Origin: a virus
Taxonomy: Duplodnaviria > Heunggongvirae > Uroviricota > Caudoviricetes
Length of the DNA stretch: 64,000 nt
Direction: 5' to 3' (one strand)
IMG/VR virus record: IMGVR_UViG_2718218172_000010
Positions within the stretch are counted from its first letter, which is position 1, and the number at the start of each line of letters is the position of its first letter. This document shows, in pieces, positions 60,001 through 64,000 of this stretch. The position numbers are program-made.

Positions 60001-63000
60001 AAAGAATATTTTTTCTGCTGCATTTTATTCCTGATTATCCGGATGCGACACATCCTTTCAACATCATGATGCATAATAACATCATGAAATAAAAGATGTT
60101 TTCTTACGGAGTGCACATCTATGTCTGATAATCGTTCCCGGCATGATCGCCTGGCGGTTCGCTTATCACTCATTATCAGCCGACTGATGGCCGGAGAATC
60201 TCTGTCACTAAAAACACTGTCAGATGAATTTGGCGTTACAGAACGTACTTTACAGCGCGATTTTCATCAGCGTCTGGTTCACCTGGATTTAGAGTACAGA
60301 AATGGCAGGTACAGCCTCAGACGACAGAGCAGCCCGGGTGCGATCCCTGAAATGCTTTCTTTTATACAGAATACCGGGATCGCACGGATACTTCCGCTCC
60401 GGAACGGACGACTGATAACCTGTCTTACCGACAACCAGGAGCCCTCTCCCTGCCTTATCTGGCTACCGGCGCCGGATATCACTGCAACGTTCCCCGAGTG
60501 TTTCTCGCAACTCATCCTGGCAATAAGACAGTGTATCCACATATCTCTGATGACTGAGCGATGGTATCCGTCACTGGAACCCTGCCGGCTCATTTATTAC
60601 AGCGGAAGCTGGTATCTGATCGCGTTACAGAAGGGAAAACTGCGGGTCTTTCCCCTGGCAGACATCAAATCGGTCAGCCTGACATCAGAACGGTTTGAAC
60701 GGAGAGACCACATCCACAGTCTGGTCGCTGAAGAGCGTTTTATCTCCGCTCTGCCACATTTCCCTTTCATCCATAAACTTATCAACACCTTTAACCTGTG
60801 ATCGCCGGCCTGCCAAAGCCGTCCCGACAGGTATGGAGACAATATGTTGAACAGAAAACTAAATATACGGCTACGTCATTCCCTGAACAGTCACTGCATA
60901 CCTTCCATCATTATCAATAACACCGTACGTTCATTTGTAACCGTCTCATTTAAACCGTCTTTCGCCTCCCTTTCCTGTTTCCGATACTAATGTCCATTTT
61001 CGCAGTAAAGGGACATTTAAGATGAATGCACGAAAAGCGGTACTGGCAGACAATCCGGAATTGATCCTGCGTGTGCTACAGCTGAGATTTGACGAGTCAC
61101 TGTCGTACCCGCGCATTTCTGCGCAGACCGGTGTCAGCAAAACCGCCATTTTTTCTCTGGTGAGGCGATTTCACCAGGTATTCACTGACTGGCCTCTTTC
61201 CGGTGAATATTCCTGCGGGCAANNNNNNNNNNNNNNNNNNNNNNNNNNNNNNNNNNNNNNNNNNNNNNNNNNNNNNNNNNNNNNNNNNNNNNNNNNNNNN
61301 NNNNNNNNNNNNNNNNNNNNNNGTTCATGCTACTGCTACTGTTCTTCTTTTTTCTGCTGCTCTGATTACTGTCTGTTTTGTTGTTCTCCTGCTTATGCCT
61401 TTTCCGGGCGTCCCCCTGGCGGGGCGGGCTGTCGTGAACGGAGCCAGCGGAGCTGTCTCCGCCCTGGCGGGCTTCCATCCCTGACGCGAAACCCCGGGCT
61501 TGCAGCGACCGTTCCGGTCGCGCCGCCTCTGTCGCGCCGTGGCCTGCGCTCCCGGCATCCCGGCAAAAGGCCGCCGGGATGTGAGGGGCAACGCCGTTTC
61601 GCAAACCGCGCTTCACGTCGTTGCGGCGGGTCCCTGCCCGTTGTTGTGTCCGGTGCCATTCACCTGTTTAAGCCCCTGTCGCCGGGGGCTGATACAGCCA
61701 CAACCGTCTCCGCCAGTCCAGGGGTGAAATGTACATCCCGCAAAACTTTTTGCCCAAAAGCAGGCAAAAACTTTTGCGGTCTGCCCCCGGACAGTCGTTT
61801 CCGGCCGTGGCAGTGATGCCCCTTGCGGCGAAGGTTCTCAAAAAGGTGATGGTGAATACCGGAGGGAACAAAAGGCAGGTCCCCGCAAAACGTCAAAACC
61901 GCGGCTCCCGAAACTCAAAAGATGATGGGGGCTGAAAACATCAACAGAAGGAGATACATCATGGCAGTTCGTGGCATTAACAAGGTCATCCTCGTAGGAC
62001 GCCTGGGAAAAGATCCGGAAGTCCGTTACATCCCCAACGGGGGCGCAGTGGCAAACCTGCAGGTGGCCACGTCAGAAAGCTGGCGTGACAAACAGACGGG
62101 GGAGATGCGGGAGCAGACAGAATGGCATCGTGTGGTGCTGTTCGGCAAGCTCGCGGAAGTGGCAGGTGAATATCTGCGCAAGGGCGCGCAGGTCTACATC
62201 GAAGGTCAGCTTCGCACCCGTAGCTGGGAGGATAACGGTATCACCCGTTACGTCACCGAAATTCTTGTTAAGACCACGGGCACCATGCAGATGCTGGGAC
62301 GTGCCGCAGGTGCTCAGACTCAGCCGGAAGAGGCACAACAGTTCAGCGGTCAGCCTCAGCCGGAACCACAGGCGGAGGCCGGTACGAAAAAAGGAGGCGC
62401 AAAAACGAAAGGCCGTGGACGTAAGGCCGCGCAGCCGGAGCCTCAGCCGCAACCGCCGGAGGGTGACGATTACGGGTTTTCAGACGATATCCCGTTCTGA
62501 ACGACTGACTGTGACAACCGCCCCGCCCCGTCCTGTGCGGGGCATCGCCGGAGAAATGAGGATGAGCGAATATTTCAGAATACTTCAGGGGCTGCCTGAC
62601 GGTCCTTTTACCCGCAAACATGCCGAAGCCGTTGCCGCACAGTACCGGAACGTCTTTATCGAGGATGACCACGGAGAACATTTTCGCCTGGTTGTCCGTA
62701 ATAACGGAACAATGGTCTGGCGTACCTGGAATTTTGAGGACGGTGCCGGGTACTGGATGAACCATGCTATCCGTGATTTCGGCATTCTTAAGTAAGAGAG
62801 GTGCCGGACGGGAACGCGTCCGGCAGACATACAACCATCCCGGTCAAAGGAGAAATATATGTCAGTTACAGAGTCTAAGACAAAAACGGAGCGTAAATCC
62901 AGCCGTAAACCGTCAAAAGAGCAGGAGACTGCCCTGTCTGCCCTGCTGGCGCAGACGGAGGAAGTGAGCGTGCCGCTGACCTCACTGATTAAGTCACCGC

Positions 63001-64000
63001 TGAATGTGCGCACGGTGCCGTATTCTGCGGAGTCCGTCAGCGAACTGGCGGACTCCATTAAAGGTGTCGGCCTGTTACAGAATCTGGTTGTTCATGCCCT
63101 GCCAGGTGACCGACACGGTGTCGCCGCAGGTGGTCGCCGACTGGCAGCACTCAACATGCTGGCAGAGCGTGGCATCATTCCGGCTGACTGGCCTGTCCGT
63201 GTGAAGGTCATTCCGCAGGAACTGGCGACTGCCGCATCAATGACTGAAAACGGTCATCGTCGGGATATGCACCCTGCCGAACAGATTGCCGGATTCCGCG
63301 CAATGGCGCAGGAAGGCAAAACACCTGCACAAATCGGTGATTTGCTGGGCTATTCACCCCGCCACGTTCAGCGAATGCTGAAACTGGCTGACCTTGCGCC
63401 TGTCATCCTCGATGCGCTGGCAGAAGACCGCATCACCACAGAGCACTGTCAGGCGCTGGCGCTGGAGAACGACACCGCACGTCAGGTACAGGTGTTTGAA
63501 GCTGCCTGTCAGTCGGGATGGGGCGGAAAACCGGAAGTACAGACCATTCGTCGTCTGGTGACCGAAAGTGAAGTGGCGGTGGCGGGGAACAGTAAATTCC
63601 GCTTCGTGGGGGCTGATGCCTTCTCGCCAGATGAACTGCGCACCGATTTGTTCAGCGACAACGAGGGTGGCTATGTGGACTGCGTGGCGCTCGATGCCGC
63701 CCTGCTGGAAAAACTCCAGGCTGTTGCAGAGTCCCTTCGGGAAGCCGAAGGCTGGGAATGGTGCGCCGGGCGCATGGAGCCTGTCGGTGAGTGCCGTGAG
63801 GATGCCGGAACATACCGCTGTCTGCCGGAGCCGGAAGCGGTGCTGACGGAGGCGGAAGAAGAACGCCTGAACGAACTGATGACGCGTTACGACGCGCTGG
63901 AAAACCAGTGTGAGGAATCCGACCTGCTGGAAGCAGAAATGAAGCTGATGCGCTGCATGGCGAAGGTCAGGGCGTGGACGCCGGAGATGCGTGCCGGAAG

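Follow-up and report, generated by a model that had tools for sequence, protein, structure and literature searches.

The virus record IMGVR_UViG_2718218172_000010 of IMG/VR (Caudoviricetes) raises the question of why a stretch of 64,000 nucleotides taken from it, hereafter the window, ends at 61323-64000 in DNA that resembles the leading region of a conjugative plasmid, the part transferred first, and of what the long hairpin placed there ahead of the gene ssb would do. An earlier note on the window had described about 640 bp of GC-rich, hairpin-prone non-coding DNA followed by a plasmid-type ssb, a DUF905-like gene and a gene for a ParB/Srx-like nuclease, and had offered two origins for this module, an integrated conjugative element or a plasmid contig scaffolded to the rest. 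The analysis reported here points to the latter: 61323-64000 is very probably a contig of an F-like (IncF, MOBF, MPF_F) conjugative plasmid, comprising a section of the leading region that lies some 7 kb from the transfer origin (oriT) and bearing a single-stranded DNA (ssDNA) promoter hairpin ahead of early genes. Open reading frame (ORF) prediction and Pfam searches reproduced the coordinates and the gene content as first described. The non-coding stretch (61323-61960) measures 638 bp, has a GC content of 59.7%, compared with 43.1% in the preceding contig, and holds no convincing gene; it is followed by three co-oriented ORFs with good ribosome-binding sites.

Two runs of 100 N each, at 44123-44222 and 61223-61322, divide the window into three contigs, which measure 44,122, 17,000 and 2,678 bp and have 48.0%, 43.1% and 58.7% GC, respectively. 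Along its whole length of 2,678 bp the third contig (61323-64000) shows 100% identity to the plasmids NZ_CP031548.1 (cq9) and NZ_CP068040.1 (U90), which are IncF plasmids of porcine Escherichia coli, and several plasmids of enterotoxigenic E. coli (ETEC) are likewise 100% identical to it. At least 5,000 PLSDB records match the contig, 4,322 among those listed being typed as conjugative. A match is present in 3,766 of 5,426 complete E. coli genomes (~69%), and the matching places in these genomes lie overwhelmingly on plasmids (13,739 of 13,908, or 98.8%), with 169 on chromosomes. The second contig is 100% identical to the chromosomes of cq9 and U90 (at ~4.29 Mb in cq9), and the tail of the first contig corresponds to a prophage that the cq9 chromosome carries at 2.36-2.39 Mb, ~1.9 Mb from the second contig. 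Since in the nearest complete genome the three contigs are thus found at three separate, unlinked sites, the N-runs represent spacers and adjacency within the window is uninformative. For the spacer at 61223-61322 in particular, the contigs on either side are unlinked, as the complete genomes of cq9 and U90 both have its flanks on different replicons. Judged from these placements, the junction of the third contig with chromosomal DNA is an artefact of joining contigs by 100 N and not an integrated element.

The complete plasmids that are identical to the contig also show what surrounds it. Their genes come in the order antirestriction gene, DUF1380 gene, a second copy of the repeat to which the non-coding stretch belongs, a small ORF, a DUF3560 gene, a methyltransferase gene, the copy of the repeat seen in the window, ssb, the DUF905 gene and the ParB-like gene, after which follow psiB, psiA, hok, a remnant of the repeat, YgeA-like, DUF932 and SLT genes, oriT, traM and the tra operon. 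This synteny bears out the leading-region layout proposed in the earlier note, and extension of the contig, suggested there with psiB, ardA and oriT as the targets, leads in the identical plasmids to an antirestriction gene, psiB, oriT and traM. Relaxases of the F type nick within GGTGT/GG, and the 5' end so produced leads transfer. In the identical plasmids a nic-like site, GTAGGGTGTGGTGCTTT, occurs 7.2 kb beyond ssb on the minus strand, and this makes the minus strand of the window the transferred strand (T-strand). The same strand serves as template for ssb, yfjA and yfjB. Synteny and the strand of the nic-like site together place the hairpin in the leading region, on the T-strand and upstream of genes transcribed towards oriT.

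All three genes lie on the plus strand and have close counterparts in F. The first, ssb (61961-62500; PF00436, E = 1.2e-37), is preceded by AAGGAG at 61948-61953 and encodes a plasmid SSB (a protein that binds single-stranded DNA) of 179 amino acids with an OB-fold domain and the acidic C-terminal tip DDIPF; its sequence agrees with that of the F SSB at 98.3% identity and with its counterpart on the cq9 plasmid at 100%. The DUF905 gene (62562-62795; 77 amino acids; PF06006, E = 5.5e-34) is a homologue of F yfjA; its product shares 96.1% identity with F YfjA and 100% with the cq9 plasmid protein, and the nearest solved structure is that of YkfF (2HJJ; E = 5.4e-21). The third gene (62859-64000), of which the window end leaves the first 380 of 652 codons, is present at full length in the identical plasmids. 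Its 380 residues contain the domains ParB_N (PF02195) and HTH_ParB (PF17762), show 92.9% identity to F YfjB (652 amino acids) and 100% to the corresponding cq9 product, find their best PDB matches in the cytidine triphosphate (CTP)-type N-domain and helix-turn-helix of Spo0J/ParB/Noc (E down to 1.2e-17), and include an arginine-rich GGRRLAA motif read directly from the sequence. By identity and domain content, the ParB-like gene is a homologue of yfjB/herB. According to a 2026 preprint, which renames it HerB, YfjB of F is a ParB-like clamp on DNA that binds CTP; plasmid entry induces it, and it reprograms transcription in the host (PMC13370423). Of the ParB/Srx-like nuclease named at the outset, the ParB-like character holds, whereas nothing was found in support of a nuclease. 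Similarly, the notion of a Frpo/ssi-type element driving early anti-defence genes is sustained for the element, as set out below, but the operon is better described as one of establishment and SOS-control genes than of anti-defence genes.

Within the non-coding stretch, strong structure is limited to approximately 61584-61931. Nested imperfect inverted repeats extend over ~61596-61914 (61596-61613 with 61897-61914, 61626-61654 with 61858-61886, 61660-61677 with 61832-61849, and 61738-61754 with 61763-61779), and on the minus strand the predicted hairpin is ~320 nt long. Folded as ssDNA, the minus strand of 61580-61930 reaches -97.9 kcal/mol, compared with -61.4 +/- 3.7 kcal/mol for shuffled sequences (z = -9.9, with 0 of 100 shuffles as good), while the plus strand reaches -84.4 kcal/mol (z = -6.7) and is thus 13.5 kcal/mol weaker. 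For the minus strand of 61395-61590, by contrast, the value of -56.0 kcal/mol differs only marginally from that of its shuffles (-49.6 +/- 3.2 kcal/mol; z = -2.0). The description of the stretch as hairpin-prone therefore applies to a hairpin of ~350 nt and not to the whole 638 bp. At the apex, both the inverted repeat and the fold give a stem-loop at 61738-61779 with 17-nt arms (94% complementary) and an 8-nt loop, which is variable among homologues and deleted in those from insect metagenomes.

The fold is conserved beyond the window. A structure alignment of seven homologues, comprising the window, the two F copies, the second copy of an ETEC plasmid, one Serratia sequence and two insect-metagenome sequences, gave a consensus hairpin of 83 pairs in which 94.8% of the cells are paired, compared with 37-48% when the partners are slid by 1-3 columns. 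Compensatory changes occur at 9 pairs, and the number of cells with a double change is 22 against 9.0 +/- 2.1 in shuffles, none of 500 shuffles reaching the observed value; the covariation is likewise above that of every slid control. Furthermore, several pairs are invariant G-T pairs, for example those between alignment columns 37/338 and 127/250, and these can form on the T-strand only. An Rfam scan of 61323-64000 returned a chance match only (E = 0.43) and thus no known RNA family, a promoter scan found no sigma-70-type duplex promoter in 61323-62000, and a terminator scan gave one weak terminator-like site, no more than expected by chance, and no terminator-like T-tract.

Homology connects this hairpin to a well-known group of elements. 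In a comparison with a reference set from PMC11541004 that includes F ssiD (GenBank D90178), the minus strand from 61931 to 61584 is identical to ssiD at 338 of 350 aligned columns (96.6%), so that the comparison with plasmid ssi/Frpo regions suggested in the earlier note was borne out. Against the F record NC_002483, identity amounts to 97.7% for Frpo1, the Frpo first described, upstream of ygeA, and 88.0% for Frpo2, upstream of ssb, and with the three elements of ColIb-P9 the hairpin aligns over a central core of 113-118 nt only, at 74-78% identity. Homology, structure (fold and covariation) and context assign the hairpin (61584-61931, minus strand) to the class-1 Frpo/ssi family; it is homologous to F ssiD/Frpo and corresponds by position to Frpo2/ssp1b, and promoter function of this copy is predicted. 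The element is already known and extremely common: Frpo homologues have been reported in 6,006 conjugative elements (PMC11541004), and ssi1-3 and the Frpo elements together make up class 1 (PMC12672017). The rest of the window was found to contain no second copy of the non-coding stretch that bears the Frpo element.

In its details the hairpin is a mosaic, since its upper stem is that of F Frpo1 and the TATCAG of its internal loop that of F Frpo2 (61584-61931 compared with 15658-16004 and 10269-10614 of locus L002). Recombination between these dispersed leading-region repeats is known (PMC3817090), and a copy that holds the position of Frpo2/ssp1b while being nearer to Frpo1 in sequence fits such exchange. 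The mosaic thus suggests gene conversion or exchange between dispersed copies of the repeat.

Most of what can be said about function comes from experiments on related copies. The in vitro work of Masai and Arai on the F element, as summarised in PMC9849209, found ssDNA-specific promoter activity, and deletion of F Frpo2 abolishes the early expression of SsbF and YfjA in transconjugants (PMC9849209). Promoter start sites of pESBL, including those of the class-1 elements ssi1-3, have been mapped by 5' rapid amplification of cDNA ends (RACE), and transcripts of the F genes that Frpo1 and Frpo2 control are enriched in recipients (PMC12672017). In addition, ssp1/Frpo transcripts prime conversion to duplex in vivo, and early conversion downstream of ssp1a and ssp1b is rifampicin-sensitive (bioRxiv 10.64898/2026.01.09.698686). 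If the copy in the window behaves in the same way, the T-strand would enter the recipient as ssDNA and its ~320-nt imperfect hairpin would form a pseudo-duplex that offers -35/-10-like boxes to the sigma-70 RNA polymerase of the host. Transcription with the T-strand as template would then proceed towards oriT through ssb, yfjA and yfjB/herB, and beyond the window through psiB and psiA, before the complementary strand exists. Synthesis of that strand would remove the hairpin and switch the promoter off, resulting in a transient 'zygotic' burst of expression, and the transcripts could also prime the synthesis of the complementary strand.

Two candidate -35 boxes can be proposed on the minus strand, and from either of them RNA polymerase would ascend the stem, pass around the loop and return along the 5' arm into ssb. 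The hexamer TTGAGA on the 5' arm (61836-61841) is invariant in all seven homologues and is followed by a fully paired spacer of 17 nt and then by CATCAC (61818-61813), which lies in a conserved internal loop of 5 by 6 nt (alignment columns 114-118). This last site reads CATACT in D90178, and the Serratia and insect homologues have TAAAC(C/G) after 18-19 nt. The alternative, TTGACG near the base of the stem (61891-61896), has a TTGAC core (columns 36-40) that is invariant in 7 of 7 sequences and a sixth base that is G in six of them and T in Serratia; the hexamer 17 nt past it, TTTTGT, is poor and not conserved. The combination TTGAGA-17-CATCAC is favoured here as the putative promoter, because a mispaired -10 agrees with the description in the literature. 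On the plus strand the equivalent hexamers are weaker (TTAAGC for TTGAGA and TTCACG for TTGACG), which is consistent with activity on ssDNA only. A -10 on the 3' arm was considered as well, with either the TACATT bulge close to the apex or the internal-loop TATCAG as its site, and was rejected since no usable -35 is found 16-18 nt upstream; TATCAG can also be discarded because the experimentally active Frpo1 of F has TCTTTG in its place.

Several points weigh against this account of the contig and its hairpin and must be kept in mind when the alternatives are considered. The placement of the -35 and -10 boxes is uncertain, as the -10 candidates of both of the best combinations (TTGAGA-17-CATCAC and TTGACG-17-TTTTGT) are weak, and the promoter mechanism is carried over to the window copy from its near-identity to F and from the experiments on F and ColIb-P9. 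The oriT, psiB and the tra genes lie outside the window and are supplied by the identical plasmids. The contig begins at 61323, yet the long exact repeats that it shares with other copies begin at 61370, 47 bp inside it, and for this reason the idea that the contig starts at a repeat edge was rejected. Finally, the third contig is joined to the second by the 100-N gap alone, which formally speaks neither for nor against physical linkage. The integrated element of the earlier note would be either an integrated conjugative element or an F-like plasmid inserted into the chromosome in the manner of a high frequency of recombination (Hfr) strain, beside the CP4-type island that the preceding contig holds. 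Such an integration could have been mediated by the IS66-family element in which that chromosomal island ends, the 169 chromosomal places among the 13,908 matching ones in complete E. coli genomes count in its favour, and the island of cq9 itself bears DUF905, DUF932 and antirestriction paralogues. It is nevertheless very unlikely, since in cq9 and U90, the two complete genomes with 100% identity to the second as well as the third contig, the chromosome holds the 17-kb segment and a plasmid the 2.7-kb one, and since the chromosome of cq9 continues beyond IS66 into other island genes and not into ssb. Moreover, the third contig opens in plasmid sequence without an IS66 end, and the distance of ~1.9 Mb between the first and second contigs deprives adjacency in the window of linkage information. 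No continuous sequence leads from the module to chromosomal flanks or to an integrase or att site, the sole link being the 100-N spacer. Of the two origins first offered, it is the plasmid contig that stands, the segments in question being on separate replicons in cq9 and U90.

With the DNA read as a plasmid contig, two other roles can be considered for the hairpin. One would make it mainly an RNA element, that is, a structured leader or small RNA, or else a terminator or insulator of duplex DNA, and not an ssDNA promoter. The plus-sense strand does fold well (-84.4 kcal/mol, z = -6.7), and a start inside the hairpin would put part of it into the mRNA leader, but the better fold of the T-strand by 13.5 kcal/mol, the invariant G-T pairs that only this strand can form, the lack of an Rfam family and of a terminator-like T-tract, and the ssDNA-specific promoter activity seen in experiments on the 96.6-97.7% identical F element make such a role most improbable. 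The other would see the main task of the hairpin in the priming of complementary-strand synthesis, as an ssi signal, or in blocking replication, with gene expression being secondary. This is possible, if on balance unlikely. Priming is in keeping with the history of ssiD, which was first isolated as a single-strand initiation signal, and with the ability of ssp1/Frpo transcripts to prime duplex conversion in vivo; a roadblock has its parallel in ssp2, a different hairpin of the leading region that stalls complementary-strand synthesis. In F, however, the roadblock maps to ssp2 and not to ssp1b/Frpo2 (2026 description), and the deletion of Frpo2 abolishes the early production of Ssb and YfjA. 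Since priming and transcription are two outcomes of one initiation event, the priming role complements the explanation of the hairpin as an ssDNA promoter.

The hairpin does not make up the whole of the repeated unit. The GC-rich DNA upstream of it in the window (61323-61583), located on its 3' side when the transferred strand is read, forms with it a leading-region repeat of ~600 bp that occurs in 2-3 copies per plasmid, and this upstream module accompanies every copy. Its segment 61451-61578 is common to Frpo-type sequences with differing hairpins (85% identity over 81 nt in a Salmonella candidate, 83% over 59 nt in an insect-metagenome sequence and 93% over 29 nt in ColIb Frpo3), and its distal part, equivalent to 61336-61548, persists in at least 111 plasmids that have lost the hairpin itself. 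It is doubtful that the module is more than spacer and has a function of its own on the T-strand, such as halting the early operon before it, serving as a site of priming or loading, or promoting recombination by which cassettes of the leading region are shuffled; in favour of such a function are its presence with every copy, its partial sharing with Frpo-type elements of differing hairpin, and its survival where the hairpin is deleted. Such a deletion is found in the identical plasmids themselves, where the copy of the repeat upstream of ygeA/DUF932 has lost the whole hairpin, the missing part corresponding to 61549-61900 of the window (locus L004, 17405-17659, in the cq9 plasmid; locus L001, 25405-25659). 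The deletion junction is present at full length in 111 PLSDB plasmids, and the deleted copy occupies the position of Frpo1 in F, where an engineered deletion cut the transconjugant frequency from ~92% to 25%.

Inside the hairpin, RefSeq places a 'hypothetical protein' of 68 amino acids on the plus strand (WP_000275848.1; 61729-61935). The corresponding ORF is frameshifted in both F copies and is therefore probably spurious and not a gene. Only a tail of 39 amino acids (MPLAAKVLKK...) is open in all copies, probably owing to conservation of the 5'-arm DNA as such.

The neighbouring contigs are of a different nature. The second one carries at 44223-60936 a CP4-type, CP4-57-like chromosomal island that encodes dGTPase-family, H-NS-family, ProQ/FinO, YfjI and inovirus Gp2-type proteins, as well as a YeeP-like GTPase (59034-59918) and a regulator with WYL and helix-turn-helix domains (60121-60801). 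Beside the GTPase gene of this low-GC island lies an ORF of 407 amino acids on the minus strand (57710-58933) that has no Pfam match and is annotated in cq9 only as hypothetical. The contig closes with 286 bp (60937-61222) that form the left end of the IS66-family element, whose tnpA begins with the ORF at 61022. In cq9 the IS66 copy lies 67 bp further upstream, after the equivalent of window position 60869, so that the insertion site differs between the genome of the window and cq9; the matches flanking the cq9 copy overlap by 9 bp, which is consistent with a target-site duplication. The cq9 island then goes on with DUF905, DUF932, antirestriction, RadC/JAB and CbeA/CbtA genes (locus L003, 25439-31426), which are paralogues of genes of the plasmid leading region. 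The tail of the first contig is a prophage structural module that ends within a tail-protein gene. Directly after the large terminase gene, an ORF of 478 amino acids on the plus strand (24251-25687) bears the name 'anti-CBASS protein Acb1 family' in the annotation of the Prokaryotic Genome Annotation Pipeline (PGAP); this may be an over-annotation, as the position is usually that of the portal gene. For the annotation of the record as a whole, the value of the analysis lies in identifying its last contig as IncF conjugative plasmid DNA of a porcine E. coli lineage, and in the reminder that adjacency across N-runs is not linkage.

Among known systems, the CP4-type islands (CP4-6, CP4-57; YkfF family) resemble the plasmid of the third contig in encoding DUF905, DUF932 and antirestriction paralogues. 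Unlike the plasmid, the segments of such an island seen here, in the second contig and in its cq9 flanks, show no ssb, psiB, oriT or tra genes. A mechanistic parallel is provided by the minus-strand origin of M13/f1, an ssDNA hairpin that mimics a promoter for the host RNA polymerase, which then makes a primer RNA. That origin, however, has no sequence relation to the hairpin of the window and primes DNA synthesis only, without gene expression. Closer are ssi1-3 of the IncI1 plasmids ColIb-P9 and pESBL, which belong to class 1 and have the same architecture and the same role as dispersed repeats upstream of leading-region operons, including those of ssb and psiB. Part of their flank is shared with the window, whereas their outer stems cannot be aligned with it and their backbone is IncI1.

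The nearest relatives are the elements of F itself, and the window adds one more copy of a very common and well-studied plasmid module, the function of which experiments have demonstrated for a copy with 96.6-97.7% identity. The F element ssiD/Frpo1 (Masai and Arai, 1997; D90178) has the same long imperfect hairpin on the transferred strand. The differences of the window copy from Frpo1 of NC_002483 fall in the apical stem, a bulge, the internal loop and single stem positions, with none in the candidate boxes, and while ssiD/Frpo1 stands upstream of ygeA/ygeB, the window copy stands upstream of ssb. In this respect it corresponds to the operon Frpo2-ssbF-yfjA-yfjB(herB)-psiB-psiA of F (NC_002483), which has the same gene order, orientation and position upstream of ssb, and whose non-coding region is 91.5% identical to that of the window over 579 aligned columns. 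In contrast to F, the plasmid lineage of the window has a DUF3560-methyltransferase operon with its own Frpo copy upstream, and the copy at its Frpo1 position is without the hairpin.

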